From: Microbotryum violaceum
Taxonomy: Eukaryota
Assembly (NCBI GenBank): GCA_001244265.2
Contig: CDLV01000004.1
Coordinates: forward strand, 1,612,001 to 1,676,000
DNA: 64,000 bases
Direction: 5' to 3'
In this document: piece by piece, positions 11,831-58,339 of the stretch
Numbering within the stretch: position 1 is the first letter of the stretch
How the letters are laid out: each line of letters begins with the position of its first letter
Made by a program: the position numbers and the translations under genes
The notes under the pieces: model-generated
What the model was told of the DNA's origin: nothing
Databases searched by the model: none
The model's input: only the letters and a program-made list of their open reading frames with translations

Positions 11831-12244
11831 CAACCGTACGAAGTCAATCCTTCCGCTGTCTCACTGACGTTCAATGTTTGTTTTTGGTGTCAGTTTTTCC
11901 GTCATATCTAAGACTGCACAGCCATGTCAAGGGATGACTCATGTATGCGTGTCACCAGCTGGCGGTGAAGAAACAACTCGAGGGTTGACATTCGAAGAGG
12001 ATGTGTTGTAAGGGAATTTCTGCTTGGTAGTTTTCCATTAGCTTCTGAACAACACAGCAAGAGCACAATCCATGAAGTTACTTACTTGAATTCGTAGCTA
12101 TGTTGCATGCAGCCATTTCTTGATTCCGTATTCGTTGCAGAGCTTCCACGGCAACCGCTTCGGATGTCGGAAGCTTGAGGTGGCGACGGGATGAGGTGCG
12201 ATGGGTAAGGTGTGAAGAGCAGGAGGGAGAAAGATGGAGAAGCC

Positions 12245-12645
12245 TGCGCCTCAGTTTGAACCGGACTCATAGAATGTCGCGGAAGGCTGCGGAACATTGT
12301 GGAGTGAAGCCCGAAGCAGAGGGTCACGTGCCCAGCTGCTTTGATGGGAAATGGAACCTCGGCGAACGTGGACGGAACGGTTTGTCGCCACGTGGTTTGT
12401 CTCCCGTTCTCTGACGTTCTTTGACATTGACGTGGTAGACTTTATAGTCGTTGAACGTTTCCTATACATACCAGTTTCTTGCTTCGCGCGCTTCCTTTTA
12501 AAAAAATCAAAGATAAGCAAACCGCGATGCTTTAACAGCATTGTGAAATTTCCTAAACGGTCTGAAACAGCGCTAGCTAGCTGGGACGCTGGACCGAGAG
12601 CTGCTATGACGTCATGCAACGTGGTTTGTCTATGTCTCAGGACGT
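12245..12645. repeat. Helitron-associated repeat block, related copies at about 17826-18190 and 10550-10650
   Basis: Shared GCCTCAGTTTGAACCGGACTCATAGAATGTCG and CAGCGCTAGCTAG...ACGTGGTTTGTC motifs. Confidence 0.75.
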
Positions 12646-12680
12646 TTTTTTTTTTACTACTAGTGCGGTGGCGCGCTTCG

Positions 12681-15600
12681 TATGATGTTAAGCAACGCAC
12701 AGACCTGCTCAAGCAGTGGTAAGTCTCTGATCGACGGACCAAAGGAGACCAGACCAAGAAGTTGCTTGACACACCTGCTCAAGCAGTGGTAAGTCTCTGA
12801 TCGACGGACCAAAGGAGACCAGACCAAGAAGTTGCTTGAGCAGGAGAGAGAGAGGCGCGCAGGACCAGCTAGTTGGGGGCAAGTGCGCGCGTCTGGCCAG
12901 AAGACGGAAGATAGACGGCAAAGGCCGGGTCTAAAGGAGAATAAAGGTAGAGACACAGGGGCCATGATGCTAGAAGGAAATAGGAGAGAATTAAAGTACT
13001 TTGAGAATCTCACACCCCCCGACTTCGAGCATCAGGGAGAGCAGATGCCAAGGCGGCCATGGTGACACGCAAAGAGGTCGCGGGCTAGAGCCTTAGTGAA
13101 AATGTCGGCGGTCATGTCGGCCGTGTTGATGTACTGGACAGCGACATCACCAAGGGCGACCATGTCGCGGACGAAGTGCTCGCGAAGCCGGATGTGGCGG
13201 GTGCGGGCATGGAAAACCGGGTTCCGAGTGAGAGCGTTGGCGCCTTGGTTGTCGCCAAGCACGAGAGTCGGAGCAGAAGAGGGGAGACCCAACTCACCAA
13301 AGAGTTGACGCAGGAAAACGGCTTCCTTGCCGGCATGCGAGAGGGCCAGGTATTCGGCGTCGCAAGTGGAGTCGGCCACGCGAGACTGGAGGCGCGAGGA
13401 CCACGAGATGGCGCCACCAGCATAGAGGAAAGCATAGCCCATGGTCGACTTGGAGGAGAGCACACAGGCACCCCAGTTGCAATCGGAGTAGCCAATTACG
13501 GGAGCAGAGTCGCCGTGGGAATAGCACAGGCCGTGCGAGAGTGTTCCAGCAAGGTAACGGAAAACGTGTTTGATAGCACCCCAGGCAGCTTCGGATGGGG
13601 ACCGGGAGAATCGAGCCAAGTAACCGACAGCGTAGGCCAGATCGGGGCGAGTGCCAGTGGATGCGTACATGAGCGAGCCAACGGCCTGAAGATAGCGGGT
13701 GCGGTCCGCAAATGGGGTAGGGTTGGTCTCAATCTCAAGGTGGAGGTCGGATTTCATCAGGGTGGCAACCGGGTGGGCGTTTGACATGCCAAAACGAGCG
13801 AGGATGTCCTTGAGGTACTGCTCCTGGCTTAGCGTGATCAAGCCATCGGAGGAACGCCGGATTTGGATGCCCAGGACATATTCCGCTTCACCAAGACGCT
13901 TGACACCGTAACATCGTTCAAGGCCCTGGAGGGTGCGCTCAATTTCGGGTAGGGAGGGACCAATCATGAGGAGGTCGTCGACGTAAAGCGCGATGTAGTG
14001 GTGGACGTCCCCAACGGTTTTGACGTAGACGCAGTGGTCGGACTCAGTGGCAATATAACCCAGCCCAAGGAGGGTAGAGTCAATTTCGTCGTTCCAGATG
14101 CGACCAGCCTGGCGTAAGCCGTAGAGGGAACGGTGCAATTGTAGAACTTGACCGGGCAGGGCAATGCCCTCGGGGACACGCATGTACAAAGGCTTGTCGA
14201 GCTTCCCATGAAGATACGCTTTGTCAATGTCAGCCTGGTGAACGTGGTAGCCTCGGGCAGCAGACAGGGCCAGCAGAGCACGAATTGAAGTGAACTTGGC
14301 AACGGGCGCAAAGGTCTCGTCGAAATCGATACCGGACCGTTGGGAATCACCGCGGGCGACAAGGCGGCCTTTGTATGACTTGACCTTCCCGAACTGGTCG
14401 CGTTTGGTGCGGAAAACGAAGCGAGAGCCGATGATTTTGGCGTCGGCGGGGACGAGGGATTGGTCGATGGGCGTGAAAGCGGAGAAATCGCGAGAGAGTG
14501 AGTCAAATTCATCACGAGCCGCAAGACGCCACTCATCTGCCTGTGGTGAAGCCATAGCAGCACGCCAGTGGGGTGGGTCGCGCGCAGGGGCAACAAGCTC
14601 AGCGGGGTCGACGGTAGAAGTGTCCAGAAGGGCGGCAGCGGCGTCCGCAAGGTAGCACACAGGCGCAGGTGAGTGAAGGGCGTCATCAACATCATCGGAG
14701 AACTCCGGGGCAAGGCATAGGGCGGAGAAATCATAGGAGCTGGGCCGGAGTCGAGGAGAGGGACAAGGCGTAGAAAAAGCCGAGTCAGGGCTGCCCTGGT
14801 CAGGGGCGCCGCCTTGGTCAGAGGTGAAGGGTGCGGGCAATGCCTGGTCAGGGACATTACGAGCAAGGGCCGGCGAGCCTTGGTCAGAGGCATCAGGTGC
14901 CGGGATAAGCTGCTCAGCGCGAGGCACAGGGGAGCGGGGGGGACAGGAAGCAACGGCTGGGGGGGGTCAGCCTGGTCAGGGCGTGACGCAACAACATCTG
15001 GGAGAGGGTTGGCCGGAGAGAACAAGGCGGGAGTCGGTGTCGAGGCGGGGAACTCGGATTCACGGAAAAGGACGTTCCGACTGAGGAGCACCTTGCGAGT
15101 AGTCGGATGGAACAGGCGGTAGGCCTTTGAATGGTCGTCGAGACCAACGAAGATGAGCGGTATGGCCTTAGGGTCGAGGGCAGAGCGGGACGTCGAAGGA
15201 AGGCAATGCCAGGCACGGCAGCCGAAGGTGCGAAGGGAGGAAATATCCGGCGCGTAACCATACCAACGAGCGTCGGGAATGTCGCCATTGATGCCGGCAT
15301 GGGGTGTCATGTTCTTGCATCGGACAAAGTACATAGCAGCTTCACCCCAGAGTCGCGAGTCGACACCGGCCGAGTAGGCAAGGGCAAGGATGCCCTCCTT
15401 GATGGTGCGGTTGGGGCGCTCAACCCGGCCGTTCTGCTGGGGCGTGTAAGGTATTGTGAGTTCCCGACGAATACCCTTGCTGCAGCAGAAATCGACGAAA
15501 CTGCGCAGCGTGAATTCACCGCCATTGTCGGAGCGAATGGTCTTTACGCTGTCGCCGGTCGCTCGCTCAACCTCAAGGATCCAATCATGAAGACGCGGGA

Positions 15601-17720
15601 AGGTGTCGCTCTTGCGTGCAAGGAGGATACACCAGTGCTTGCGGGTGTGGTCGTCAACAATCACAAGCATGTAACGATGGCCGCCGAAGCTAACGTGTGG
15701 CATCTGGGCAAGGTCGACATGGATCAGGCCGAGGCGCTGGGAGGCAATCGACGTGGAGCGGGCGAATGGAAGGGCATGCGCTTTGGAAGCGAGACATGCA
15801 TTGCAATGGAAGGTCCTACACTCCTCGTCCGAGTAATCCCACACCACACCAGTAACCATCCCTTTTTGAACGATTTTCTTGAGAAGGAGGACGGGGAGGT
15901 GCGCAAGGCGGTTGTGTAGGGTAAGCAAGGACACGTGGGAGGGCGAAGCGAGCAGAGCGTGGGGCCTACAAGGTGCAGGAGTGAGGTCCAGAGTGTAGAG
16001 GTCATTGGCGATGGCCCGAGCGGTGGCGACAGCGGTACCAGCGGCGTTGCGGATGGTGGCGACGTTGGAACCGAACGAGACCGTGAAACCGAGGCGGTCG
16101 AGGCGTCGAACGGACAACAAGTTGCAAGGCAACGAGGGCACATGAAGAACGTCAGCAACGGCGATGCGACCGGAAGCCGTGTCGAGCGCCACGGAGCCGG
16201 AACCGGTGGATGGTAGGGAGCCCGCAACACCAGCAACGTGCGGTCCCTTGACGGGCTGCAAGTGCGTAAAGAGGCAAACGTCGTTGGCCATATGCCGATT
16301 GGCGCCGGAGTCCAGGAGCCAGGCCCCCTTGTCGAACGGGGAGGAGGCCGAGAGAAAGCAGGCGGAGTAGATCGCAGGTGAGAGGTGCTCGTCGGCGACA
16401 GATGGCGCGGCAGCGGGAGAGGCAGCGGGCTGGGAAGGCTTGCGTTCGCCGGCGGGCTTGTTACTGTTCTCGATGGCACGACGCGCGCGGAAGGAGGCTG
16501 CCCAAGCGGTGTCGGGGCAGTCCCTGAGCCAATGCATCTTGCGACACTTTGGGTTGGGGCATGGGGTTCGAGGAGCGCGGGTGTCGCGAGCGGAGGATCG
16601 AGCAAGCGCCGCGGTGGGAGTGTCGACTGGACGAGCGCGAATGTCGCGTAGGAGGCGATCGAAAATCGCCGAGACAGACGGCAGGGTTGTCGAATCACCC
16701 TGGTCGTTGACGAAGGTCGAGCGCCACGACTCGAGCGATGGCGGTAGCCGGGAGAGGAGGTGCGAGGCGACGAGAGAGTCGACAGTGACCTTCGACGAGG
16801 TGAGCAGACGAAGCTGATTCTCGAAACCGTCACGGAACTGGAGGAACGAGTCCGTGGTGGCGGGGAGCTCCTCGGTGCTGAAGAGCGTGACCACGGCCGG
16901 AAGGAGGTCAACAGCCGAGGTGGCGCCGTAACGAGAACGGAGAGCCTGCCAGATCTTCGGCGCGCCGTCGCTATCGTCGAGGAAGGTCGACAAACCGGGG
17001 AGGACCAAGCGAGGGTCGACAGACGAGCAGAGCGAGGAAAGGGCGTAGTGGTCCCATAACGGGACGAGCGAGGGGGGCCACGAAGTGCATGGCTCACCGC
17101 TCTCCAGGTACCGGAGGACACCGGCCGGCAAACGCGAGCGGACGACAAGGAGCCAATCCTGGTAGCCCGCCGAGTCGCGGAGGAGTTCCGTTGCAGCAAA
17201 CGAGGCTGGCTGCTGCGGCGGACGAGCGACGATAGGGGCGATAGCGGCTTCAAGGGAGGTGCCGGGCTGGGGCGTAGCGCCGGGCGCGGACTTGGGAGGC
17301 ATAGCGGGGCGGCGCGAGCGTGCGAAGAAAAAAAACGAAACGGACGCGAAAGCGACCGTGCTGGTAGATCGTGTGGGCTTATAACCTATGATGTTAAGCA
17401 ACGCACAGACCTGCTCAAGCAGTGGTAAGTCTCTGATCGACGGACCAAAGGAGACCAGACCAAGAAGTTGCTTGACACACCTGCTCAAGCAGTGGTAAGT
17501 CTCTGATCGACGGACCAAAGGAGACCAGACCAAGAAGTTGCTTGAGCAGGAGAGAGAGAGGCGCGCAGGACCAGCTAGTTGGGGGCAAGTGCGCGCGTCT
17601 GGCCAGAAGACGGAAGATAGACGGCAAAGGCCGGGTCTAAAGGAGAATAAAGGTAGAGACACAGGGGCCATGATGCTAGAAGGAAATAGGAGAGAATTAA
17701 AGTACTTTGAGAATCTCACA
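12681..17720 (-). mobile_element. Near-intact 5040-bp Ty1/copia LTR retrotransposon
   Basis: 334-bp LTRs at 12681-13014 and 17387-17720 that look identical by eye; TSD CTTCG on both sides; PBS-like GGTTATAAGCCC; G-rich PPT; gag-PR-IN-RT-RH domain order. Confidence 0.97.
13032..17302 (-). CDS. Copia gag-pol polyprotein with one frameshift near 14930
   Basis: CPNPKCRKMHWLRDC knuckle; WLLDSGA; IRSDNGGEF; LYGLRQA; YVDD; YSDCNW; ADIFTKAL. Confidence 0.92.
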
Positions 17721-18249
17721 CTTCGCACGCCATGACGTCACGCCACGTGGTTTGTCTCGTTCTAGGACGTTCTTTGTCTCGACGGCCTATTTTATTATAT
17801 AGTTTTAAGGATAGATGAACGACTGCGCCTCAGTTTGAACCGGACTCATAGAATGTCGTGGAAGGCCGCGGAACGTCGTGGAGTGAAGCCCAAAGCAGAG
17901 GGTCACGTGCCAGGCTGCTTGGATGGGAAATGGAACCTCGACGAACGTGGACAAAACGGTCTGTTGCCACGTGGTCTGTCTCCCCGTTCTCTGACGTTCT
18001 TTGACGTCGACGTGGTGGACGCCCGAAACAGTCTGCTTCGGGACAGAGAGAGTCACGTGCTATTGAATGGAACCTCGGCGAAGGTAGACGAAGCGGTGTC
18101 GCCGATGCGGAATCAGCGCTAGCTAGTTCTGGGGACGCGCTAGACGAGAGCTGTCTATGATGTCATGCCACGTGGTTTGTCTCTTGTTCCTTAGTCATTT
18201 ATATAGATGAAGTATATGAATGATAAGTTTTAAGGATAGGGGTACCTAA

Positions 18250-33287: not shown

Positions 33288-34537
33288 GCGGCGCCGTGGA
33301 CCGACTAATGAGCGCTAGCGCGGCTTAGTCGTGTTGAGTGGTCGGAGAAGCGCGAGCGCGTGCACCGTGAAAAGGGCAGGCGATGCGGGCGGGCCTTGCT
33401 ATGCGAGGCAAACTGCGCGCAAACAGGCAAACGGCTGCTGACAGTCGACAGGCGCTGCGGCGAAGCAAGTGCTAGGTAAGCAGGTACGATGAGACTAGGG
33501 AGAGAGGGCAAACCGGCGAACGAGGGCAAAGGAGCAATACGCGCCGCGATACAGCTCGATCGAGCAGAGTTGGGAAGAATGCGCCAGTGGTGGGCAGATT
33601 ATTATGAACCGCTTAATCGATGACTAGGTGCTGACTAATCCACCTCCGGTAGTAGTTCCTAATCGTGGGTGAGCTGCCGTTTCGTTTCTGGAAAGTTCGG
33701 GGCGGTACCGGTGCTGGGGGGTGCGCTTGCGCTAACTCGCACGCGCCAAATTGAGTTGGCGCAATTGAGTTAGCGCACTTGAGTTGGCGCAGTCGAGCGC
33801 CCGAGTTAGCGCACTTGAGTTAGCGCACCGCGCCAGATCGGCAGGTCCATTAAGCCAGCAAAAAAAAAAAACCTCTGGCTATATATCTAAGCACACCAAA
33901 AAGTGGCGCGCGCGGCGCCCCTCCCAGCGCCACTCTTAAGCGGCGTACCCATACAGGTTCCCCCCCCCCCCCCCCCCCTGCAACCCGGGTTGCTCGAAGG
34001 CCCGAGGCCAAGGGCACACGGAGGCTTGTGTGGGCTCCAACAGTTTCATCTCATGTACGTGTGTGCTCAAATCAGGTCATTCGTAGTGTGTAATTCGTAT
34101 TTGGAACACTCAGTGTCAATTTTTTCGGTAAACTATCAGCGAGGAGAGGTTCGATTAGGAAACATCATTACTAAAGTGATAAAATGACATTATTGAACGT
34201 GATGGAGTCTCGTGCCCTTTCACCACGCTAACAAACGCAAGCGACACTGAGTGACAACGAGCGACTTGACGCCTCCTTGACGCGCCGCTATCGACCACGT
34301 GCAGTCCTGGTCTTACCCCTTCCTGTCGCCGTTACGCTCTTCGTCATATATCTATACTTGACGCCATCCGACGATCCGATATGTCCAGCCTGTCTGCTCC
34401 CAGCAACGCGTCAGACTTTGCCGCTCCCACCCGTGAGACGCGTCCTCGTGTTTGTGATATGGGTGGTCCTTCTGCTCACCACCGTTCCTCGCTGTTTCTG
34501 CACAGCTGCTTCGGTGCAATCGACCAACAGCGCAGAC

Positions 34538-36196
34538 ATGGGGTCCGTACTGTCTCCAATTACGGTTCAGACCCAACAGAACCACCTTCCTGCGCCCAGC
34601 GGCGCGACTTCCGAATGTGGACGAAGCACACCGCTCGCCTCAAGGCCGACCTCGTCCAACTCAATTGATCAACAAATCAAACAGTTCAGGAAGAGATTCG
34701 AGCTCTCCATGATGCCGTTCGTGCGTTGCCTTCAACTTCGCGAATGTCGTCGTCGTAGAAGCAGCGCCATGTGCTCTATGGCTTGCAACGTCGCCTCGAG
34801 ACAATGAAGTATTGTCTGCATCACGGCGTTCGGGACGACGACCTCGACGCGTACATGCCTCGTGCGATCCGAAGGAATGTCACAAACGACTGGAATGCTT
34901 TCAAGACGAGCCGCTTTTTCCACTGTCTCGTCGAGAAGGACGGACTCGAAGGTGAGCGCGGCGTCTGCCTTTCTAGCTCATCCCGAGATCGTTCATTTTG
35001 GCATTGCAAGACGCTCCTTTACGCTTCTTTGACTCACAAATTGATCACTCTGTACCCCTACAAAGTCTCGAAAGATTTTTCTACGCTAAACACAATTGGA
35101 TTGCGCTACTGGGAAAAAGTCAAAGACTCGCCAGATCTTTATGAACAATGGAAGGAAGCGTGGGCAAGTGAAGCCGAAGCGCGTGAACATGAGCAGACCA
35201 CTCGTCCCTTCAAGCGATGGCGAATCAATCCTGCTGCCATCACCAAACCGAGTCACAAGTACGAAAAGACGATACACGAACTGGTCCGTGACAATTCAGC
35301 TCTTCTCGTTGGGCTCTCCTCAATTCTCATGATCCTCCCGCTGACTTAGATAGCTTGGCACTGAATCAGGTTAATCAGCATGCTGACACCTACGGATTCG
35401 ACGCGTTAGTCATCGTCGGCTCGAACAAGCTCGAGAATAAAAATGATCGTTTCATTGTTTCGACGCTTGGCGGCGCAGCTTTCATGCGGCGCCAAAGCTG
35501 GGGTTCTCAAAAGAACGATGTGCTCGTTAACTTCACGGAATGCATAAATGGCACCCGGTTCAATCAGGAGCGAGACGAGCAATTCAAGATGGAAGGTCTG
35601 TCAGACAAGCTTCAGAACGGACCTTGTGCTCGGCGATAGATTGGTGCTGATTCCAAGAACTGATGAGCAGCTCATCATGGTGATGTTGACAAGGCGTCTC
35701 ACCGAGTGCTCTGCACATGGTATCGCATTATCATTGAAGATTACTATAGTAAGCAATCACTCCACCGCTCTGCGCCCACATTTGGCAGCCCATGACTGAA
35801 GTTTTGTGGCCGTGCAGATCAAGCGCTCCGTCGTCGCCACAACAGAAACGAGTCTATTCAGCCCTACGTGCCTTGCTTACGAGCTACAACCAGGAAACTC
35901 TTGCGAAGGATCCAACCGCTCTTGTTGTCGAGCTCGGAAACGGTCTTCACGAGCGTGATTTCCGCAGTCCTACCAATGGCAAGAAGCCGACCGTTGACAA
36001 TTTGAGAAGAATTATTCCATTGATGCGACAGGGTGGGCTTACGTTTTCGCTCAAAGAGGATATCGGCCAGGTCTCTTTTGACCGCACTCCTGCCGAGAGT
36101 ACTTTGATGAGCGAGCAGTCGGAAACGGAGCCAGAAGACCAAGACACTGGATCTGATTCTTGTTCTGATTCTGATTTGGGAGCTGCAACATTTTGA
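34538..36196 (+). CDS. KDZ cargo gene 1, multi-exon, possible divergent HMG-like protein
   Basis: Spliceable ORF chain; RRNVTNDWNAF and ..IGLRYWEKVK..YEQW; acidic C-terminus. Confidence 0.5.
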
Positions 36197-36299
36197 TTCC
36201 GAATCCGACTACATTTCTGTTGTTCAGTATATTGTTGGTGCGCCTATCGCGCGTTGAGGTAGATTGCCAAACTTTTTGTAGTCGTTGAGGTGATATCAA

Positions 36300-37200
36300 C
36301 CTGTGTGTGGCAAGAGGTATTCAACAAGTTTCCACGCATCTTGACTAGCTTGACTATCCGTCCGTTGATCAATTATGCGACGCATTTTTGATCGCAAGGC
36401 AAATCGCAAAGCAAATAGATTTACCCGCGCTAAACGTTTCAGATTTTACTCCGTAGATTCAGGCAAATAATGGATGTTCAAATAAAGTACTCACTCATCC
36501 TACCGAATGTCAAACTGCAGTTAAGCTCGTCCCAGAGCTTGGGGGGTGACCAACAGCAAAGCACCCAGATTTCTTCGACTACTCCTTCGGACCCCCCGAG
36601 ACGCCGGTGAAGTGACAGCAGAACCTTGTCGAGAATGTCCTTAATAACACGCTTCGCGTAGGGTTCTTCAAACGGCGTGCCCACGGTGAGAAGGAGAGCC
36701 GAGATTATTCGTTGGCGCTGGAACAATAGACATAAAACAGAAGCAGGGAACAAGGTAGTTCACCACTTCTGACCTGCAGACGCAAGATCGCAAGGTGTCC
36801 GAGCTTGCTAGCTGACCACGGTGTTCTAGCTGAGGGCCAGGGAAATACGACGCTGCATTACGCGTAATCAATGCCTTTTCTGCTGAATTGTCAATGGAAG
36901 GGGGCGTAAAGTCGGCATCGATATAGTGGCAGCTTGGTGCTGAGGCGTCAATGACTTCGTAGTAGCAATTCTCGTTGTTGGCCGAGTCGCTTGCATACAA
37001 GCTACAAGCGCTAGCGTTCATAGGTCGCGCTCGCGATCGGTGCCGACTACGTATTGCTTCACGCCCGTCGCCTGGGACAGACAATGTGCCAGGTGGCCAC
37101 TATATCTCGTCTCGTGCAAATACTCGATGATCTTGATCTTTGTGTCCCGCAGACAGAACCGCTGGTTGTAACTTGGTATGAATCGAGTCGCTAAGGGCAT
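36300..37200 (-). CDS. KDZ cargo gene 2, possible PrimPol/AEP-like gene or pseudogene
   Basis: TGVKQYVVGT followed by NCYYEVIDASAPSCHYIDADF; the frame join and 3' end are unresolved. Confidence 0.4.
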
Positions 37201-37354
37201 CGGATCGGCTGTGACGCGACGGTGTCGGTGATGCTGTGAGAGGAGAGAGCGCGCGCTCGGTGACGCTCGGTGACGCGAGGCGCGACGTGTACCCCCGGGG
37301 GTACACAGTGGGACACTTCTCTTTCTCACCCCTAACCCCCACTCCAAGTCCAAC

Positions 37355-38756
37355 ATGGCACCACGCGCCACCGAGGGCGAGCGCGCTTGGCTCGACATCG
37401 ACTCGCATCTCATCCGTGACGAGTCCGGCCAATGGCGTGTCCGTTGTGAACTTTGCAACAAACACTACAAGCTGCCTGGAGGGTACAGGTCACTCGACGG
37501 ACCAACTGTAGCACCGGAACATGCACATGAGGCCAAACGAAACCAAAAAAAAAAAATCATTCGTATACACAAGCGCGCGTTCAATTCGTCTACGGTCGAC
37601 AGTCGGTACAGATGCAACGAGGCGGCGTTTGAGCTGATCGGTACCGACTGTGAGGTCCAAGCAGTGAGTGCTAGACAGCTTTCCCAGGAGATCAGAAACA
37701 AACTATGTGGAATTCGGCTAAACCTTTGTTGATGTACTTATCTGATCTGATTAGGGTTTTGGCCACCTAAAGAAAAGATACCGCCGGCAGTTGCAGGCCA
37801 AGCTTGACATGTTGGAGGCGCCGGGGAAAGCGGACCGTGCGAGGCACGACGAGTGGGCGGCGGAAAGGGCGCGTCGGCTGGTGATGGAACCCAAAGACAT
37901 CATGACTCAAGACCCAATCCCTGAGGGCGTCGAAAATTTTGACTATGAGGTCCGGGAGGAGATCGACTACGTCATGTGGCCTGTTTGGGATGAATGGGCA
38001 GGGTACAAAGCGAATGGACGTCTGCCTCGGAGCCTGTTGACCGTGCTCATTCATTGGAGGAACGTGTTGTTCGATGCATACGATAACCAGAAGCGAAAGA
38101 GAGGTGGAGGGAGCGCGAGAGTTTTGAAGGAGTATAGGACCCGCATCCAAGACTTCGACGATATCCTCGCGCGCATCTTCACCGTCCCCGTCGACATTGC
38201 CGCCGAACATGAGGAATCGCGCCTATTCAGTGAAATCCTTTCACCCCTGTACCAAGAGTGCCAACGCCCCCTCCCTGAGGACGATGTAAGGACCGACGAG
38301 GACCAGGATGGGAGTGACCGTCTTTTAAAATGGATCCAAAAGGCGTACCGCCCTTTTCTGGGGAAACGTGTCCCGGACGATTACCGGGATCAGTTAGAAA
38401 GCGAACATCGCACCTGGCAAGCAGCGCTCAGACCATTTGCAACGACGGTGCTCGTCCACGTTCCCGAACCTCCTAAGCCGCCCACCGATGCGGACCTCGA
38501 GCCCGAAAGGAAGAAGATCTGGGACTCCTGGATTGTTGAGTGTGCCCACATGTGGTTGGCGCTGTCGAGCAAACAGAGGGACGCGTATTGTTGGATGCGC
38601 AAGAAGGGGTCCGGCGGAGAGGGCGCCGCGTCAATCTCGGGGCACGAGAGGAGGACGCGATATCGGAACACAGTTCGGCGACCGGCCAACATTCCGACCA
38701 CGGATCGGCAGCCGGTTCGGAGGCCGAAAGCAACCTCTCCACCCTCTCCGAGCTGA
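37355..38756 (+). CDS. KDZ cargo gene 3: BED-like Zn finger N-terminus and HMG-helix-like C-terminal motif
   Basis: W..VRCELCNKHY; 321-codon open exon 37791-38756; ECAHMWLALSSKQRDAY. Confidence 0.55.
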
Positions 38757-39303
38757 CCAGCCTGAGCGAGCTGGAGCGCGGCCTGGATACTGGGACATGA
38801 GGCACCATGAGTGTCAATTCACCGGTTAGGCGATCACCGTCCCGAATTTTCCGTGAGCGTGTGTAGCTGTCTAGCTTGTATGTTGTGTTAATGGAGATCC
38901 TGCTCTGCAATCATGATTCACCCCGAGGTAAAACGCACTCCGAAGGCGGAAATTCTAGTTCAATCTTAAACCTTAGGGCAGGGCGTAGATACACTACAAC
39001 AGAGTCCTGCGCCTTCGGAAACGAGGAAGCGGCGACGACATGCTTCATCAGTTCTAGGACACTCTTAACAAGCACTGTACAACCGGCGTAGCGGTATGTA
39101 GCCCCCGGAGGTACACATGACCGGTGCCCTCTCCAGCTGTATACTCCCGGGGTTCCACGGCTCAGGCGCGGTCCGTCGCCGACTGCACTACAACAAACTT
39201 CCACGCACCCGTTCAGAGCTCAGGATGTGTCTGCAGTTACTGAATGGAACACCCTCCTGCGACGAAACCGACAAAATATTCGTTTGCTACATCCGACTTG
39301 CAC

Positions 39304-40295
39304 TTTTTTTTTTTTTTTTGACTGGGGCTCATAAATTGCAATCCTTCGGGTTGGCTGGGACCGCTACAAAAAGAGCTAAAGGAGGTTATAAAGCAACGAC
39401 AGCAAGCAGTTGGGTGAAAGTCAAACCCCTGCGCGCAAACAGCGCTGCGCAGATCAAAGCCCGCCGAGCACCTAACGCGGACTCCAACGGGCGGTGAGTA
39501 CTGCTGCCGCTTCACGTCCCAAGAGCGGGAGCAAAGATACTCGAAAACCAGGCAAGAGCGCCTAGAGAAAGAAGGGGGAGAGTATACAGAAAGTCACGAC
39601 TGGGGATACGGAGAACCAGGAATACTAAGACAGAGAGGAGGGGAACACACCCGAGGGGCCAAGGGAGGGGGTCGAAGCCGGAGGTAGAGGTCCCCAGGGA
39701 CTAACAGGCCGCAGCCAAGCCCCAGCTACTCGTCACCCCGACAGCGCCTGATGTCCTCCCTTGGCTGAATCTCGAGTGCTGGCTGTTGAGCCGTCGGGGC
39801 CGAGAGAAAAGCGATCCAGTACAACGAAACGAGCCTCGCCTTGACGCGAGGATATTGACCAGAAACGAGCGACCTTCCTTCCCGAGCCATGCCGTAGATC
39901 TTGACCAACGCGAACGAACGAACCATTCAACGGAATCCAACACACGGCTTAGGAGTAAAAGGAGAAGTGGCTGAAGCGTAGTCAACAACCGAGCAACAGG
40001 AACGAGAAGAGGAAGGGAAGGGAAAAAGGGGGGAAAGGAGAGGGAAAAACTTCACAAAGCCTCCAACGCAAAGACAATCGACCTGGCTTGCCGATCCATC
40101 CAAGAACAAAAAACCGCTACTGCGCAAAGTAGAGAGAGAGAGGGAGAGGTGCGCAGCCTTCCACTGCGCAACAAGTTCCAAGACAGTCAGCTTCTAAAAG
40201 AGGAGTCGACCTCCGAAAAAGAAGGGAGGAAAGTTCTGAAAAGCCCGCAAGGCCAATGCACTTCTCCAGCTGAATCTCCGTTCGAACCACCGAGC
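39304..40295 (-). mobile_element. About 1-kb poly(A)-tailed retroposon inside the KDZ element
   Basis: Poly(T) tract at 39304-39319; 3' 300 bp match 7974-8271; no clear ORF. Confidence 0.7.
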
Positions 40296-40365
40296 AGTAG
40301 CTCAGCGGTCAGAGCAACTCTGATTAATAGAGTGGACCTGAGTTCAATTCTCAGTTCAGCCAAAC
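40296..40365 (+). ncRNA. 5'-truncated copy of the tRNA-like sequence
   Basis: Identical to the reverse complement of 56433-56502. Confidence 0.75.
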
Positions 40366-40395
40366 TTTCTTTTGTTTTCCAATTGACATGTTATT

Positions 40396-40657
40396 GTACT
40401 CCCGGGGCTACGCAAGGCGCAAGCGGAAAGCGCCCGTGTACTCCCGGGGGTACACAAGGCGCAAGCGGGGCCCCCGGGAGTACGCAGGCGCTTTCCCGCT
40501 TGCGCCTTGTGTACCCCCGGGAGTGATCACACCCTGCGCGCCGAATGACTGTGTACCCCCGGGAGTACACAGCTTTGTCGGCGGCACAGGCCGGGTCCCC
40601 CGGGGTTACACTCTTGTCGCGCGCCGACTCTGTGTATGTGTACCCCCGGGAGTACAC
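40396..40657. repeat. Array of about 7 palindromic GTGTACCCCCGGGRGTACAC motifs with a larger inverted repeat
   Basis: Direct reading; related copies at 37287-37306 and 39097-39157. Confidence 0.85.
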
Positions 40658-41182
40658 AGCCCCTACAATGTCCTTGGCCGATGAACCAATATCCCTGCTC
40701 ACTCGACTACATAAACTATCACGTCAACGGAGTAGGTATGCGGTGACGTATTTCATTGATTTTTGCTGACATATTATCGCAAGCACTGTACAACGGAGCC
40801 CCGTTGGACGCGTCTGGACCCAGTTCGGGGTGCTGTTGGAACAGAACAACTACAGCAACACCAATCCTCACCGCCCCCGCCCCCCTCTGGCAATGTTCCC
40901 CAACCTGAACCTGCAAATGTCAGCACCGATGCGCACCAATTCTTAGTTTTCAACTTAGCAGAACCTTCAAGCTTGTCACGTACTGCAGTTCGGTGAGTGT
41001 GGCTGTAGCGACCGGCTCGTGGGATCATGGTCGTCAATGCGTCAACGCCTCATTGAGGCTGACATCCATTTACTTTTGTGCACTAGCGTCCACAATCCAC
41101 CATGTGCGATATGGGCAGCATACAAAAAGCAAAGTCCTTCAATAACAAATAATCTAAAGTCAACAAATGCGCCAAACCATCC

Positions 41183-44100
41183 CTAGCTAGCCCATGGGCT
41201 CGTCGAGAATCTCGAGGTCGTCCGAGTCTTCAACGCTTGTCGAGCCCGACTCTCCGTCGCCCTCCCGAGCTCAGCATCATCTTCTTCCTCGACCTCCTGC
41301 TCCGATAGTGAACCCAAAACTTCTTCCATTCGTCTTTCATACACGTCATCACGGTCTCGCTCGGCATGCTCCGCGGCTGGATCGGGGGTCAGGCCAAGTT
41401 CCCTTCGGAATGCGTCGAGGTCGCTGGTTGTGTGGCGCACGTCCACGGCAGAAGGACCTGATGAGCGGCGGCTCGACTCAGTGACGAGGCTCTGTATTTG
41501 AGTATTATTCAGCGTCGAAAGGCGGCGACCGAAATGACGTGGACTACCGCGCGACCGGCGCAACACCTGTTTCGCCCGTCCGGCAAAAACTCCTCCGATC
41601 AAACCGAATGCAGTGGGCCGCGATTCATGAACTGCGGGTGAACGCGTTCTAAACCAGACAACCGAGAGATCATCGCGTTCGGCGAGCCGATCCAGACGCT
41701 CTTTGAACGAAATCTGCCGGCGTTGAAGCACATGCCACACCGCAGTGCCAACCTCGCCCGCGCCATCAGTTCCGAGAAGTTTCTTAGCCGCTTCGAGCGT
41801 TTCTTCGGGAACTAATAGAAGGGGCGACGTAAGGTACAGCACCAACACAAAGAAAGGGTGTGTCCATCTCACCTCGGTCCTCTGCCCATGCCTGAGATAC
41901 CCTAACAAAGGGGGTGTCCTCATCTTCGAGCCACGCAAGTAGCTGTCGAACCTCAGCTCCGATTCGGAGAATCTCTTCTTCCGCCCTGGCTTTGAGTAAA
42001 ACCGCCTTGATCCCTTTCTGAACATCGGTATCAATCGCCCAAGGCGCAGTGTCGTGTACGAAAAAACCGTCTTGCTAGAAAGCGTCCGTTGGCGACAGAG
42101 TCACAAGCGACTTAATTGTGGTAGCGAGCGGTAAGTTGTCCAGAATCTGGGCCGATTGCTCGGTCGCAGCATTTCGGTAATCCCCGACCGCTTTATTGTA
42201 CATATCGATTGCCACCTTTACTTTCTTGCTGTGCGTCTGTGAGACGCTGACAAGCTTGCTGGCTTCCACTTGACCGATTGTCGCGCCGCTTCGTCCCCGA
42301 CCCATTGAGTCAATTCGTTCTTGACAGCATTGCAATTGGACCGTCGCTTTGTGTAATGCGCGAAGTTTGACTACGCAGTTGCACAAATGCTGGAGATCTA
42401 GGTATGTCATGGGACATCAAACATCAGGTGGCGATACTCATAAAGATAGGACGCGCGCCGCACCTAAAGCTGCAAGCTCCTTCGTGCGATCGTATTCTTG
42501 TTGGTAAGCTCTTAGCTGTTGCTGCAAGCGAGCCTTCGCTTCATCGGAAGCCATTGGATCGAATCTGAACACACAATGCCAAGACACAGTGTCAATTTTA
42601 CGCCCTCGTCCTCCAACGGGGTTTAACGCGCCGAACGTACAGCCTTTCTTCCACGTGGTGTAGCCTCTGTACAATGTTGAAAAGCTCTAATCGCTCCTTG
42701 TCCTCGTTCTCCCGACATTGACCCGCCGTTGTGGCCGCTTGAGCAGCTCGTTGTAAATCCCATTGCGCGAGAAGGTCAGACTCGGACCATATTGCCGAAA
42801 TGTCACTCAGATCAGTTTGTGCCCTTCCAAGCTGATCTTGAGCATTCGACAGTCGTCTGCGGAGCCAACGGCCTAGAATGGACGATGAATGAAGGGACCG
42901 CACGATTAAGTGACGAACACGGCGTGAAAGTGTGGATGGCAGAGCCTACCGAGGCTGTCAACACCGTTCTTGTTCATCAGGTCGATGCGACGCGAGATGT
43001 TGACGCGCCGGTGAGAAGCGCTCGCAGGACGATTGATCGGGATTAGCGATCGGAGCTGACTCCAAACGCGTTCGCATCCCTCCCCATCCGTCAACCCGAA
43101 GTGCTGAATCAGGCGCGGGTTGTACTCAAGCTGGCAGGGCCATTGATGAGCAAAAGCATGAAACACGCTCGTGGCAAACTTCAATCTCGGAAACAGATCG
43201 GGAAGGATACTTCTCTGCAGGCGATCGAAGTACAGTACAGGTCAGCGGCGCCCCAGGGCCAGAAATCTAAGAAACGACGGATCCGCCACTCTTGCTGACC
43301 GATTGCATGTAGCCGTCCAAATTACACGCAACATCATACAGCACTCCAAGTGTATCGTCGGACGGGAGTTGGTTCGAAATATGTTGCAGCAGCGATAAGC
43401 CGTAGTAGCGCCTGCCTCATCAAAAACGAGCGTCAGACCCTGTAAGCGGGTGAGAGGAACTGAGCTGACGAACTTTTCACCTGATTGATACAAGTTGACC
43501 ATCTTCAACGCGATATCGTGACGGCAGACACAGGCAACTAGGCCCGTATCGGACTTGCCCCGCGAGATTTGTGTCGCACCGCCGTTGGCCGCTTTCCATG
43601 AATCAGCACAAGCCTTCAAGACGCAAGAGGAAAGGCGTCAGCGCGTTGAAAGGATCGCAGGGGGCGGCTCGGATCAGCGGACCTTTTCTGACTTCTTGCT
43701 GTCGCCACCATCACAGATCTCCTTCATCGATTCGAGCTCATCTTCGCCGAGGAAGAGGGCTGGCGTCGACTCCTGAGGATCGTATTTGGCTGAGGTGTCG
43801 CGAGAATGTTGGAAGTTGCCTTCCAGAGCGACAAGATGCTGCACTTCGACTCTATGGTGGGCTTGGTTTAGACGCGTCGATCCGTAGCATGCTGGACACT
43901 TATCCGAGAGAGAACCCGCGACACCGAGGACGAGGTCGCCCAATTCTCGCTCGGATGTCGTGAGAGCCCGAAATTCGTCAAGGGCGCGCTGGAGTTGCTT
44001 TCGCAGCTCCTTGTCCTGCGCGAACGATGATAAATATCAGATAATGATCAATAGCAATCATGACAGGGGGTCGAGCTCACGAATTTATGCTGACTCAGGC

Positions 44101-45250
44101 CCGGCCGACTCCATCCAGTTTGGTCATAGAAATGTCGAGCCCGCGAGCTGCTCCATCGACAGGAAACGGCGCAGTGCTCCACCAGGAGTCGAAAAATTGG
44201 AGAAGTCGAAGGGTGAATGCAGAGCGAGGAGCAGCTGCGGTCGATCCGATTAATCCTATCTGAGCAAGGCGCTCGGCGTACGTAAGGCATGGGCTATCGC
44301 TGCTGGATCTCCGACAGAAAGCGATCGGCACCTCGACCACTACTGCATTGATTCAACCATTCGACCTTGTCAGCGCAACGTTCGACAGAGCGACCCAATT
44401 CGCCTGATTCACATACAGCTTATGAGGTCGTACACGTCAAGCCGTAAAGTGAGGGAACTCTTGCATGAACAAGGCGGCGGCACTTCGCTAGCGACCGAAC
44501 CCTGGCACAGCTCCTCGTTCACGTCAATCAAGGGCCGTAGATGACCTTTGACCCCAGCGCAAAACGCGATGTACTGGCGCAGAAGCGCTGGCGGTTCCAA
44601 GCGCCTAAGGCGAGCGTCGTTGAACACGAATTGCTTGTACGTTTCTTGCTTCGACTGACCACGTGTGGCTGATTCGAAACTTTCGACTTGGCGCAGGTCA
44701 GCCAGTGATAATCGCTCGGCGATTGCACTATAGTCAGGCGCGATTGGTATATGGGATGTTCGATCCGGAGAGTATGGGGCTGGATCGAAGTCGTGCTCGA
44801 AGCCACCACCGTACTCGCTGTAACGCTCTTCATCCCAATCCATCCCACTCGAGTTGGCGGCGTCACTCGCGGCTTCGTCGGAATCGGCCTGAATGGGAAG
44901 GGCCATTGGACGCTGAGGAGACGGCGAGCTAGCTTCGCCAAAATCATCGAAGGTTCCTTGCTGGATTTGGCGGGCAGTGTAAGTAACACGGTGCCGGGTT
45001 CCGGGGATGTTGGTGCGGAGTCGGGCGTCCGATCGGAGGCCTTGAGGCCTATAGGAAGGATGCTCCTCAAAGTAGTCCAGACGGACCTTGAAAGGTCTCC
45101 ATCGATGCCTGCCATCGTCGATGTGAATTGCGAAGCTTCGAGATTTAGGAAGGGTGTCTCGATAGTTGATGCTCTGGTTAGAACTGAGGCGGGTCTCACT
45201 TGGCGCTGAGCGGAAGCTAAAAGAGACAGGTCTGCGGGCATACTAGTCAC
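41183..45250 (-). pseudogene. CxC1-type KDZ transposase, multi-exon, with a premature stop
   Basis: CPACYG; LEGNF; DTGLVACVCRHD; SGEK; LYDVAC; VFHAFAHQWPCQ; GLTDGEGCERVWS; PWAIDTDVQKGI..RAEEE; in-frame TAG at 42075-42077. Confidence 0.9.
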
Positions 45251-45484
45251 TAAATGCTCAATCTCATTAGCAAGTTAATCTTGGCCTCGGGCCTCGAGCA
45301 ACCCGGGTTGCAGGGGGGGCAACCTGTATGGGTACGCCGCTTAAGAGTGGCGCTGGGAGGGGCGCCGCGCGCACCACTTTTTGGTGTGCTTAGAAATATA
45401 GCCAGAGGTGCAAAAAACCTCGTGCGCGCACGCGCGATAAGGCAGCTTTTCTGTTTTTTGGCCCGGGGGGAGCTTGGTAGACCG

Positions 45485-45761
45485 TGTGAGATTGACAGCC
45501 TCCTATGTTTCCTTCTCGCATCATGTCTCCTTTTCTCGGTCTTATTTTACCGCCATTTGGCCTGCCTTTCCACACCTTAGCTCTCTTCCTTTCTGGGCTG
45601 GGTCCGTGCACCTGACAAAGGCGGCTGGCCCAGCCGCGCGCTAACCCGAGCCAACTGGCTCCGCGCTCCTCTCTCTCCTGCTCAAGCAACTTCTTGGTCT
45701 GGTCTCCTTGGTCCGTCGATCAGAGCCTTACCACCGCTTGAGCAGTCGCTACAACTCTACA
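45485..45761 (+). mobile_element. Solo LTR related to the 12681-17720 copia
   Basis: TGTGAG...TACA; TSD GACCG on both sides; shares CTCAAGCAACTTCTTGGTCTGGTCTCC. Confidence 0.9.
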
Positions 45762-45847
45762 GACCGATGGTGTACCATTGCTCCCCCCTCCTCGCCCACC
45801 CCGGCACGGTGCACCTCTGGGTGTCCCACGAGCCGTGAAGCGAAAGC

Positions 45848-47158
45848 TTTTTTTTTTATCTAATAGATTTCATTAACAGCATATCTATATTAATGCCTAA
45901 AAATCCTCGGAAAAGACGGAGGGAATGCAGTTAAGCACACTGGCGAGGCCAGTAGTGTGGGACTCGTTGACCTTGGAACAAAATCAACCATACCCACTAA
46001 AACCCCCTTAGGCGGTTACAGCGAAACCAGTCGTCCCTTGGACTCCTGGATGGACGCGCGGAGCTCCTCAAATGCCGTTTCGGCGATCGGCTCCAGAGGA
46101 TCCGACGAAAATCGACGGCGACGAGAGAGCTTCCAGATCGCGTGGAAGAAGAGTAGACGCAGCTCGACGGGTCGGCGTTCCGAGCGAGAAACGACCGGGC
46201 ACACGAACTGAACAAAGTCGGGGTGTGGGATAGGAGTGAGCGCAGACCAGAGGCGGCGGGCAAACGGGCAACCGACCGCAAGGTGTGCCAGGGTCTCCGG
46301 AGCCTCCGACAGGCACATGACACATGCGGTAGATCGATTGTGGAGAGAACGGCTATTCGGAGAAGCGATTTGGCTACCTGGATGAAGTGAACCTAGGGAG
46401 AGGAGGTGGGCCGTGTCTTCGGCGTCCGAATGAACCCTGCGAATCTTGCGTAGCGCCTTCCACCAGGCATTCCAGCGTTGCTCGGGGAGACAGAAAACCC
46501 TCTGATGACCGAGAGGGAGGATAGGAGGGTAGAGGAAGGCTTGGTGGCGTTTGGACGCGTTCCCAAACGAAGACGGAGTCATCACCTCGCCATCGGGTCC
46601 TCGGAAAAGCGTCGGGTTCACCGAGAGTCGGATTCCGTGGCCTGCTGGGAAGTAGAGGACGTGTGTTGCCCACCGCTCCAGATTCGGGCTCTTGGAAAGT
46701 TCGGGGGGTTCAGCGTTGTCACCAAATCCCAGGCTTCGAAAAAGCGGATCCATCGTGGAGGGAGCAGGGCCTTCGTCTTCCTCACTGCGCGTTCCCACTG
46801 TGGAGGAGGGTGGCAAAAGTAGGCCCACCAGATCCAGACCCACGAGCGACGATGTGGGTTGGGGCCTGATTTGGGCAAGGTAAAGGGGGTGCGTTCGTTC
46901 GCCGCCTGAAGGCGAGTGCGGATGTCGAAGAGGTGCCGAATGAAGCAGCCGTCCGGGTCCCGAAGATGAAAGACCCACTTGGCGTGATCGACCGCGAGGC
47001 GCCGAGGTAAGTCAATCAAGCCAAAGCCGCCGTGGTCGAGAGGGGTGCAGAGGCGCAGCCGAGAGACCTTCGGGGTTTCTGAGATCCGTCCGAGGCTCGA
47101 CCGTGGATAGCGATCATGACCGCGTCCTCGATCTCCTTGACGACGCTCTTGGAAGCTT
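45848..47158 (-). mobile_element. 5'-truncated LINE, same family as 61068-64000
   Basis: Poly(T); near-identical to 61068-62380; CVMC..ETLAHLAVGC zinc knuckle. Confidence 0.93.
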
Positions 47159-51056: not shown

Positions 51057-53874
<2,818 letters not shown>

Positions 53875-56432: not shown

Positions 56433-56856
56433 GTTTGGCTGAACTGAGAATTGAACTCAGGTCCACTCTATTAATCAGAGTTGCTCTGACCGCTGAGCTA
56501 CTCAACCAGTGGGAATAGATGAATATGACGGCGCACCCGAGTTACACCGGCGGTGGTTCTACCACACATTGGGAGCCATGGCGGGCGGACTGGTGCACGG
56601 TCACATTGACTGAAGCCTGGCGATGCGCACCAACCGTTGTCTTCTCTCCACGGTTGGATTACACGCTTGTCAGGTACGTACATCTAGCACTACGGCTACT
56701 ATCATATGCAATTAACTGACGGTTGGATTACACGCTCGTCAGTCTCTTATGGATTAGCAGGAAGGCGGCTTTCGGTTATTTGATTAGAAGCGCGGGTTTC
56801 TAATCAAATAACCGAAAGCCGCCTTCCTGCTAATCCTCATTCACAACACGCCAACT
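56433..56856. mobile_element. 424-bp structured insertion in the copia RT
   Basis: Splits [16 protein letters not shown] duplicated at 56428-56432 and 56857-56861. Confidence 0.88.
56436..56507 (-). tRNA. 72-nt tRNA-like cloverleaf with nominal anticodon TTA and non-canonical G32/A33; probably a pseudo-tRNA
   Basis: GGTTGAG TA GCTC AGCGGTCA GAGC A ACTCT GATTAAT AGAGT GGAC CTGAG TTCAATT CTCAG TTCAGCC A; all four stems pair. Confidence 0.7.
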
Positions 56857-58339
56857 AAATCAATGTATGGAACGAAGCAAGCTCCTCGAGAATGGAACTC
56901 GGCAGTCAACAAACTCATGGTCGCTTGTGGTTACTCGCGATCTGACGCCAATTCATGTCTTTATGTCAAGCGTGTCGAGGAGATGTTCATCTACATTACT
57001 CTTTACGTCGATGATGGACTCGCTGCCTCGAACGATCAGACGTTTCTGGATTCGGAGATCCAAGCTTTCAACAAGGTGTACCAACTCAAGCAACTTGGTC
57101 CTGTGAAGGTGTTTCTCGGTCTCGAATTCCTGCGCTCGTCCAAGTTCATCTTCGTGCACCAGTCCAAGTACATCAGGAGCCTTGTCGCTACGTATGGCGG
57201 AGATCACGGATCGAAGCACCCAGCGAAGGTCCCGATGGAGCCCAGGTTGAACATGGAACACTCGGCGGAGCTGTTCGACGACATTGCACTCTACCAGTCA
57301 GCAGTGGGAGCTTTGCAGTATGCTGCGCATCGTGCTCGTCCCGACATCGTCACTTCGGTTTGTGCAGCAGCTTCCAAGGTTTCAGCTCCTACCCAGGCCA
57401 ACTGGATCGCGGTGAAGAGGATCATCCGCTACTTGCAAGGTACCATGGACTGGGGACTCAAGTACAACCTCGAGGGTTCGACTGTGTTCGAACTCTACTC
57501 AGATGCCTCGTGGGGAGACGACATGTTGACTGGCAAGTCGATAGGAGCGTTCGTCTCGATCATGGCAGGCGCAGCAATTTCTTGGCAGACAAAGGAGGCC
57601 ATGTGGCTTCGACGCCTGGCTGCGGATCTCAAGATTCAACAGCCTGGATCTACACTTCTCTGGGAGGACAATCAGGCGGTGATTGTGATCGCACAGAACC
57701 CAGCTCATCATGGTAGGACGAAGCACTACAGTGTGCATCACATCTACATTTGCGAGCGAGTTACGACTGGCGACATTCAAATCAAGTATTGCAAGACAGG
57801 AGCCATGACTGCGGATCTTCTCACCAAGCCGCTCGCTCGCAACTTGTTCAAACTTCATCGTGATGGATTGGGGATGGTATCCCTTGGAGCCTTGACCAGT
57901 GGGAGTGTTGTGGGAAATTAGTAAAGGGTCAGCGGTTCAGAGGGACTTGTGGCATTGGGAAGTTGGCGCGCGCGTGGCGCGGCGCCGGATGGAGGCAGAT
58001 GGCGGTGTGGCGTATTGATTGGACTCAGAGGTGGCTTGCACGCGGATACTATCTAAGGCTCTGGTCTCGTTCACTCTCTCCTTCTTCTTTAACACACACT
58101 CGATATCTATCTCGCCCATTTGCCTGCTACAAGTTGATTGACCTTGGCGATACTCTATCTCACAATAGGTTAGTTGTAGTACATTTAAACACACACTTGA
58201 TATCTATCTTGCCCATTTGCCTGCTACAAGTTGATTGACCTTGGCGATACTCTATCTCACAATAGGTCATCTATCAACGCCGTGTAGCTACAGCGAATCT
58301 TCATTCATTCATTGGTACTCCAAGCCCAAATCCACAACA

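Follow-up and report, generated by a model that had tools for sequence, protein, structure and literature searches.

A probable inactivated copy of a multi-copy KDZ transposon with a three-gene set in Microbotryum violaceum

The 64,000-nucleotide stretch of DNA of the anther-smut fungus Microbotryum violaceum analysed here (contig CDLV01000004.1 of assembly GCA_001244265.2, forward-strand positions 1,612,001 to 1,676,000; hereafter the window, in whose coordinates all positions are given) contains a sharply bounded segment of 11,539 bp, 33871-45409, that ends in long terminal inverted repeats (TIRs) and encodes a transposase of superfamily KDZ (Kyakuja-Dileera-Zisupton) together with other genes. 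A first-pass annotation, made from the sequence alone, had read the segment as a fully delimited KDZ transposon with three cargo genes. The question raised by this locus is whether the additional genes belong to the transposon and, if they do, whether they are passengers or parts of its machinery. The answer that we favour, with a probability of about 0.8, is that the segment is one inactivated copy of a multi-copy cut-and-paste KDZ transposon with a fixed set of three genes, namely the transposase gene and two further genes called here gene 1 and gene 2.

Boundaries and transposase of the element

A repeat search gave the core arms of the TIRs (33871-33967 and 45313-45409, 97 nt, 97% complementary) and a second inverted block (33972-34002 and 45289-45319, 31 nt, 94%). 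When the element was compared with the window by gapped blastn, 33871-34012 paired with 45409-45280 over 142 columns at 89%, and the sole large difference between the two arms was the length of a C tract (compare C19 with C7). Both ends carry ACCTCTGGCTATAT, the termini being also given as ACCTCTGG. The left flank reads GCCAGC followed by eleven A ahead of ACCTCTGG (upstream letters TTAAGCCAGC, then the A-run), and on the right side CCAGAGGT is followed by GCAAAAAA and CCTCGTG (letters after GCAAAAAA: CCTCGTGCGC). GC plus an A-run is therefore present on both sides, the left run being longer by 4-5 A. The long TIRs, the outer coordinates and the longer left A-run had all been described correctly beforehand, and the duplication is not a perfect one of 8 bp.

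A contig of the public sequencing run X1 was found to join 33863 to 45437 through 24 letters, 19 of which are identical to window 45415-45438. In this contig both flanks are adjacent, the 11.5 kb are absent and GCAAAA occurs once, as predicted by an 8-bp target-site duplication (TSD) of GCAAAAAA; the left copy of the duplication would since have been lengthened, or mis-assembled, by 4-5 A. The window itself holds no second copy of the element, since only 39305-39602 and 40296-40365 recurred when the element was searched against it by blastn.

We then looked at the transposase gene, which lies on the minus strand (Table 1). The KDZ profile PF18758 matched the window exons 42906-43241 (E 1.7e-22) and 43242-43637 (E 1.2e-10), and on the homologue P0020 it matched over profile positions 2-214 of 217 (E 2.8e-54). 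The cysteine cluster CxC1 (PF18802) was recognised in the open reading frame (ORF) 44095-44352 with 29.2 bits (cut-off 26.9, E 1.1e-06), so that the CxC1-KDZ transposase proposed earlier was borne out; the annotated homologues scored 19-23 bits with this profile, below the cut-off, and their models splice out part of the region. Alignment of P0020 to the minus strand gave about 10 exons from 45116 to 41190, followed by TAG, with 1026 of 1082 aligned residues identical. The ORF of the C-terminal part matched six proteins of 695-1086 aa, all with PF18758 and all from Microbotryum.

Nine joints that remove 61-85 nt from the KDZ gene were found in contigs of the RNA-like run X17 only, being absent from the DNA-like runs X1, X13 and X15. 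Five of the nine (41812-41872, 42565-42640, 43215-43299, 44015-44079 and 44340-44416) have CT..AC ends, corresponding to GT..AG on the minus strand. Eight of the nine introns in the homologue-guided KDZ model are overlapped by X17 joints, which agree exactly with one intron and to within a base with another, and several intron ends of the spliced alignment differ from the joints. Joints with such ends that are restricted to X17 indicate that at least one relative transcribes the KDZ gene from the minus strand and splices its transcript, and also that the automatic gene models are imperfect. Stretches with low X17 cover (e.g. 33.9-34.35, 36.6-37.06 and 38.86-39.3 kb) were not used as evidence.

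The family of the element numbers no fewer than 13 loci in M. saponariae and no fewer than nine in M. silenes-dioicae. In X1 the KDZ core has a word depth of about 620 and the flank one of about 55, a rough indication of copy number only. Multiple copies and an element-free X1 contig are what a mobile element would leave behind, and at the sequence level they argue for mobility.

Rearranged forms of the element were also observed. Contigs of the DNA-like runs X1, X13 and X15 contain the opposite-strand joints 38088<->44552 and 34433<->41760 at depths near that of the KDZ core, which indicates rearranged derivative families. The joint 38088<->44552 has its counterpart in eight proteins of M. 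silenes-dioicae (P0008-P0015, query cover 50-53%) in which the N-terminal exon of KDZ is fused to the C-terminal half of gene 2; such derivatives would carry a long inverted duplication of the right end.

Gene content, linkage and state of this copy

To the left of the transposase gene lie two multi-exon genes with annotated homologues, gene 1 (34381 to about 36005 or 36196) and gene 2 (37355-38800). Three more intron-containing genes had been announced; these two stood and no third was found. A candidate third gene at 38.9-41.1 kb was rejected, the interval being filled by repeats and containing only short ORFs without matches. In the M. saponariae annotation gene 2 is separated from KDZ by 0-1 gene tags and from gene 1 by 1-2, and these tags may hold something that this copy lacks. 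A TET/JBP gene, which the earlier reading had likewise not seen, was absent from 38 ORF translations of at least 70 aa taken from both strands of the element, unannotated intervals included: only KDZ was matched by Pfam, in a scan that is blind to exons below 70 aa. The 20 ORFs scanned from 36.2-41.2 kb gave no match.

The linkage of the three genes was read from locus tags. At all 13 M. saponariae gene 2 loci the order is gene 1, gene 2, KDZ, KDZ being 1-2 tags distant from gene 2, and gene 1 being 2-3 tags distant on the opposite side (e.g. Chr10-1 g02732/g02735/g02737, Chr5-2 g08075/g08077/g08079 and Chr6-3 g08897/g08895/g08894), and these loci are spread over 11 differently named chromosome pieces. 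Nine M. silenes-dioicae loci have gene 2 and KDZ 2-3 tags apart (e.g. C010 g06153/g06155), one has gene 1 with gene 2 (C096 g13094/g13096) and one gene 1 with KDZ (C011 g06231/g06235); in M. lychnidis-dioicae MVLG_06261 and MVLG_06262 are adjacent. Intact-looking copies occur in M. saponariae, where seven of 12 gene 2 sequences are 451 aa long and five of 13 KDZ sequences 1086 aa. The claim that the extra genes travel with the transposon is thus upheld: genes 1 and 2 are multi-copy and collinear with KDZ, and are neither lacking from the 13 M. saponariae loci, nor single-copy host genes, nor nested elements. For genes that are invariant across the family, the word cargo was a wrong choice.

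Gene 1 follows the M. saponariae models, with five exons at 34381-36002 and 408 of 426 aligned residues identical to P0078. The last two model exons are in a low-complexity frame, another frame holding a 147-aa ORF (35753-36196). Contigs of the RNA-like run X17 cover both accessory genes; on gene 1 they span 35818-36253 and 34400-34951, the latter unspliced through the annotated first intron. The low-complexity last exons and the unspliced first intron thus make the ends of gene 1 uncertain. The 196-aa ORF 34759-35349 matched six proteins, all from Microbotryum. When the homologue P0065 was searched against Pfam at E<=1, the only match was a chance-level one to FlxA (E 0.0074), and gene 1 gave three chance-level matches to PDB sequences (E 0.36-0.45). 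The AlphaFold2 model, built on 13 sequences, had a mean predicted local distance difference test (pLDDT) score of 33.4, too poor for a fold search. In the ESM Atlas the nearest clusters were unnamed hypothetical proteins of Basidiomycota (scores 0.91-0.93), a lead only, and a metagenome scan with the gene 1 alignment gave 328 pattern matches, none confirmed as a relative.

Gene 2 was identical to P0002 at 415 of 450 aligned residues. In its protein an N-terminal CxxC...HxH motif is accompanied by a long helical region and a tail rich in Ser, Gly and Glu. The motif region is predicted to fold as strand-strand-strand-helix, which fits a small zinc finger and gives no evidence for BED. The 333-aa exon ORF 37755-38756 matched 19 proteins with 65-97% identity, all from Microbotryum (18 representatives from M. 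silenes-dioicae, one from M. saponariae). A HMMER profile of ten gene 2 proteins, searched against 1.84 billion representatives, gave nine matches, none outside Microbotryum and mostly element copies or fragments. P0002 had no match in Pfam at E<=1 nor among PDB sequences, the exon had no usable match in the ESM Atlas, and the AlphaFold2 model (10-sequence alignment, mean pLDDT 40.0) was too poor for a fold search. A divergent gene 2 paralogue was noted in M. saponariae, P0072 (Chr11-1g03253, 540 aa; 34-36% identity over about 165 residues, E 2.6e-25), with one copy per mating-type assembly (two assemblies); candidate explanations are an older element family, a domesticated copy and a source gene.

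The transposase, gene 1 and gene 2 proteins showed no mutual similarity, and the window exons gave nothing relevant for the accessory proteins in Pfam at E<=0.1. The labels HMG-like, AEP-like and BED plus HMG-like, proposed earlier, thus found no Pfam match on homologues or window exons at the thresholds given above and no meaningful match among PDB sequences.

How are genes 1 and 2 to be understood? Since they are invariant, restricted to the element and open in many copies, we read them as family-specific accessory genes, that is cofactors of transposition or of its regulation rather than passenger cargo, and we hold this reading at roughly even odds. It is unlikely, although conceivable, that they are true cargo, host-derived passengers captured by the element that act on the host or on silencing (e.g. 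as a substitute for TET/JBP) and play no role in transposition. According to the parts of Kojima 2025 (PMC12730594) available to us, gene capture by fungal DNA transposons has occurred repeatedly, TET/JBP being an example, the extra ORFs of the Cryptococcus KDZ1-3 elements (see below) are compared to Starship cargo in a preprint seen in part, and neither accessory protein has a recognisable DNA-transposition domain. However, no host-like source gene was detected, all nine matches of the gene 2 profile being from Microbotryum; the sole divergent paralogue, P0072, is either source or derivative; and the gene set and order found at every M. saponariae locus have the pattern of core components.

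That the extra genes are decaying ORFs or annotation artefacts in a long non-coding spacer is still less probable, in spite of their lack of domain matches, the pLDDT values of 40 and 33, the disagreement of the annotated models on exon structure, the first intron of gene 1 kept in an X17 contig and the placing of the gene 1 3' exons in a low-complexity frame beside a 147-aa ORF in another. Frames of identical length have been kept (the 451-aa gene 2 sequences mentioned above), the cross-species identity of the accessory genes is 89-97%, the 333-aa exon ORF is open even in this decayed copy, and RNA-like contigs lie on both genes. Finally, a composite of a simple KDZ transposon at about 41.2-45.4 kb with one TIR copy displaced by 7 kb through chance or rearrangement, enclosing unrelated genes here only, is very improbable: rearranged derivatives do exist (the two joints in three DNA runs and the chimeric P0008-P0015), but the three-gene order recurs at 13 loci on 11 chromosome pieces and what is missing from the empty-site contig is the full 11.5 kb and not the KDZ part alone.

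We next considered the coding state of this copy. Spliced alignments, in which split codons are ignored, produce spurious frameshifts next to introns, and the count of defects was limited to events away from these. In the KDZ gene the ATG is out of frame (ATGGC where the homologues imply ATGGGC), 1-nt frameshifts lie near 44131 and 41263, and a TAG at 42075-42077 replaces W811 of the homologues. Gene 1 has a 1-nt frameshift near 34686 and a TAG at 34756-34758 where the homologues have Q, and gene 2 a 1-nt frameshift near 38638. Both stop codons are substitutions. An extra C behind 41263 is present in all contigs of four runs, and an extra A behind 38638 in some contigs of three runs, the difference there being a missing A beside a G-run.

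Several points weigh against an inactivated copy of a mobile three-gene element. The duplication at its ends is imperfect (compare GC plus A11 on the left with GC plus A6 on the right), and TIRs and flanks were read at this single copy. The empty-site contig differs from the window at five of 24 junction letters, was obtained at a 90% threshold and comes without the lengths of its flank sides; it may represent a paralogous site. The linkage of the genes is locus-tag numbering from automatic annotations. The RNA nature of run X17 is a guess, and its contig 34400-34951 retains an annotated intron. Of the five 1-nt frameshifts, four (the three of KDZ, with the displaced ATG counted, and that of gene 2) are explicable by shortening of a homopolymer, so that some may be assembly errors and not decay. 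Finally, the roles of the accessory proteins have behind them no Pfam or PDB match and no usable AlphaFold2 model.

Repeats, palindromes and neighbours of the element

The features of the element and of its surroundings are collected in Table 1.

Table 1. Coordinates of the features in the window, with strand and basis
Feature	Position	Strand	Basis or details
Copia-type gag-pre-integrase/rve/RVT_2 set	13032-17737	-	domain matches
Left flank GC + A11, candidate left TSD copy with expanded A-run	33858-33870		sequence reading; empty-site contig has a single GCAAAA
Left TIR	33871-34012	+	core 33871-33967, then C19 tract, 14-bp palindrome GCAACCCGGGTTGC at 33980-33993
Accessory gene 1	34381-36196	+	homologue-guided model 34381-36005, 5 exons; ORF 35753-36196 (other frame) candidate true 3' end
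Perfect 20-bp palindrome GTGTACCCCCGGGGGTACAC	37287-37306		49 nt upstream of the gene 2 ATG
Accessory gene 2	37355-38800	+	exons 37355-37663 and 37755-38797, then TGA; intron 37664-37754
Region of nested high-copy repeats without relation to the KDZ family	39182-40297		X1 word depth, joints
Poly(A)-tailed SINE-like repeat, about 300 bp	39305-39602	-	96.6% to 7974-8271
5'-truncated tRNA gene copy	40296-40365	+	70 nt, 100% identical to 56502-56433; Rfam tRNA 31.6 bits, model positions 6-65
CCCGGG-core palindrome cluster	40395-40664		one-mismatch 20-mer copies at 40436, 40551 and 40638; 30-nt perfect inverted arms 40440-40469 / 40495-40524
KDZ transposase gene, CxC1 cysteine cluster and KDZ catalytic domain	41187-45116	-	about 10 exons; Pfam, homologue alignment, X17 joints
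Right TIR	45280-45409	-	core 45313-45409; palindrome GCAACCCGGGTTGC at 45298-45311
Right flank GCAAAAAA, candidate 8-bp TSD	45410-45417		sequence reading, empty-site contig
Ty3-type integrase	52001-53494	-	domain match
Second RVT_2 fragment	56812-57921	+	domain match

Palindromes occur both at the ends and in the interior of the element. The 14-bp palindrome GCAACCCGGGTTGC is present in both TIRs. When the 20-bp palindrome upstream of gene 2 was searched for with up to 3 mismatches, the window gave 4 matches, all inside the element, as compared with 0 expected by chance; 11 of the 22 CCCGGG sites of the window are also inside. We speculate that the CCCGGG-core palindromes of the TIRs and the interior are candidate protein-binding sites.

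On the nested repeat region the X1 word depth reaches 7,700-16,000, to be compared with the values given above for the KDZ core and the left flank. In contigs of three to four runs, 40297 (or 40275) is connected backwards to 39182 (1116 or 1094 back), which suggests that this block occurs elsewhere as tandem or circularly permuted units. The repeat of about 300 bp has copies at 7974-8280 (plus strand) and 39305-39602 (minus strand) that end in A16 and are 96-97% alike, with an X1 depth of about 16,000 versus about 55 on the flank. It looks like a short interspersed nuclear element (SINE) or another short poly(A) retroposon; the transposable-element table of the 2015 M. lychnidis-dioicae genome paper, as far as it was available to us, lists 0 SINE copies. 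The tRNA gene at 56436-56507 (minus strand) scored 49.9 bits with Rfam over its full length. Its anticodon loop GAUUAAU gives the anticodon UUA, which would read UAA, an A replaces the usual U at position 33, and ARAGORN called it tRNA-Stop. A suppressor-like tRNA, a pseudogene and a repeat-associated tRNA are all conceivable.

Near the left end, contigs of X1, X13 and X15 skip the 89 nt at 34300-34388, a segment that extends from immediately upstream into the annotated start of gene 1; either it is absent from many other copies or it was gained by this one. A minisatellite (33728-33830) borders the insertion on its left, built of units like TTGAGTTAGCGCA and showing internal inverted repeats; its word depth of about 1,080 in X1 means that the motif is repeated elsewhere in the genome. 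The element is about 550 bp upstream of the 5' exon of a minus-strand importin-beta gene (IBN_N and HEAT matches). Directly to its right, a very high-copy repeat (45628-46078, X1 word depth about 20,000) adjoins an ORF at 46016-47011 (minus strand) with a weak zf-RVT match. Apart from a PAK-like gene (PBD domain) and the importin-beta gene at 26.8-33.3 kb, the window is rich in repeats. The locus itself is ordinary, a decayed copy beside an importin-beta gene in repeat-rich surroundings.

Relation to known elements and possible mechanism

The closest parallels are the KDZ elements of Cryptococcus neoformans, described in two preprints (bioRxiv 10.1101/2024.08.15.608186 and 10.1101/2025.05.19.654958), the parts of which available to us are the basis of what follows. 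KDZ1 has 10,944 bp, TIRs of 236-241 bp, an 8-bp TSD, a CxC1-KDZ transposase and two unknown protein genes; KDZ2 and KDZ3 have 9.2-10 kb, TIRs of 139 and 169 bp, TSDs of 4-8 bp and extra ORFs without predicted domains. The Microbotryum element has the same size class, long TIRs (about 140 bp), a transposase with CxC1 and KDZ, and extra ORFs without domains; TET/JBP is not mentioned in those parts and was not found here. Its host belongs to the Microbotryomycetes, whereas Cryptococcus belongs to the Tremellomycetes, and its mobility is read from sequence, whereas that of the Cryptococcus elements was, according to the preprints, shown experimentally. Homology of the accessory genes was undetected, in that the gene 2 profile, the only one searched, found no Cryptococcus protein. 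The Cryptococcus elements were put in the Dileera clade by phylogeny; the Microbotryum element, which shares the CxC1 plus KDZ architecture, is assigned to the superfamily only. The Microbotryum family is thus a further member of an already described kind, paralleling KDZ1-3, and the suggestion of an undescribed KDZ subfamily was overstated.

Other KDZ elements are more distant in plan. In the parts of Kojima 2025 (PMC12730594) at hand, the association of KDZ with TET/JBP in rusts is ascribed to the Dileera lineage. The TET-bearing Dileera elements of these fungi (e.g. Zisupton-1_PGr of Puccinia graminis) are likewise KDZ elements of Pucciniomycotina, with 8-bp TSDs, but they carry a TET/JBP dioxygenase gene, which none of the 38 ORFs contained here. 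The Kyakuja elements of Agaricomycetes, which have a KDZ-superfamily transposase in common with the present one, are described there with 7-bp TSDs, CA..TG termini and no TIRs, unlike the Microbotryum element with its ACCTCTGG termini. TET-minus families of Pucciniomycotina in the supplements of that paper or in Repbase could include relatives of this element. A literature search, with Repbase and supplementary tables outside its scope, found no published description of a Microbotryum KDZ family.

Second, non-catalytic proteins of multi-gene DNA transposons are known in TnpA of CACTA/En-Spm and MudrB of MuDR. PIF/Harbinger, as described in the same parts of PMC12730594, pairs its transposase with a Myb/SANT protein. 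These systems offer an analogy, a transposase with one or more family-specific accessory proteins in a fixed order inside TIRs; they belong to other superfamilies without sequence relationship, and the accessory role shown there is for the Microbotryum genes a proposal.

By analogy with the KDZ family, the transposase of intact relatives (about 1,070-1,110 residues, with a CxC1 zinc-chelating cluster and a DDE-type KDZ core) would bind the TIRs of about 140 bp, cut out the entire unit of 11.5 kb and insert it anew with duplication of 8 bp at the target. The present copy, with stops or frameshifts across all three genes and its TIRs kept, would at best be mobile through proteins supplied by intact copies. 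A bolder version, which we consider doubtful, makes genes 1 and 2 obligatory partners of the transposase in a three-protein machine, in which the zinc-finger-like gene 2 protein would read the CCCGGG-core palindromes and the pair would hold the regulatory or anti-silencing place of TET/JBP. If this were true, the Microbotryum family would be a distinct KDZ lineage with its own cofactors, and the extra ORFs of the Cryptococcus KDZ1-3 elements might be non-homologous analogues of genes 1 and 2.

Microbotryum genome surveys, in the parts consulted, report such elements only as 'TIR', and the present result gives one of these families a name, boundaries and a gene content. In Cryptococcus, according to the preprints cited above, the mobility of large KDZ elements and drug resistance caused by them have recently been demonstrated. 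With its conserved three-gene set, many apparently intact M. saponariae copies, rearranged derivatives and spliced transposase transcripts, the Microbotryum family is a second, independent KDZ family and can be used in comparisons to ask if KDZ elements depend on accessory proteins to transpose.

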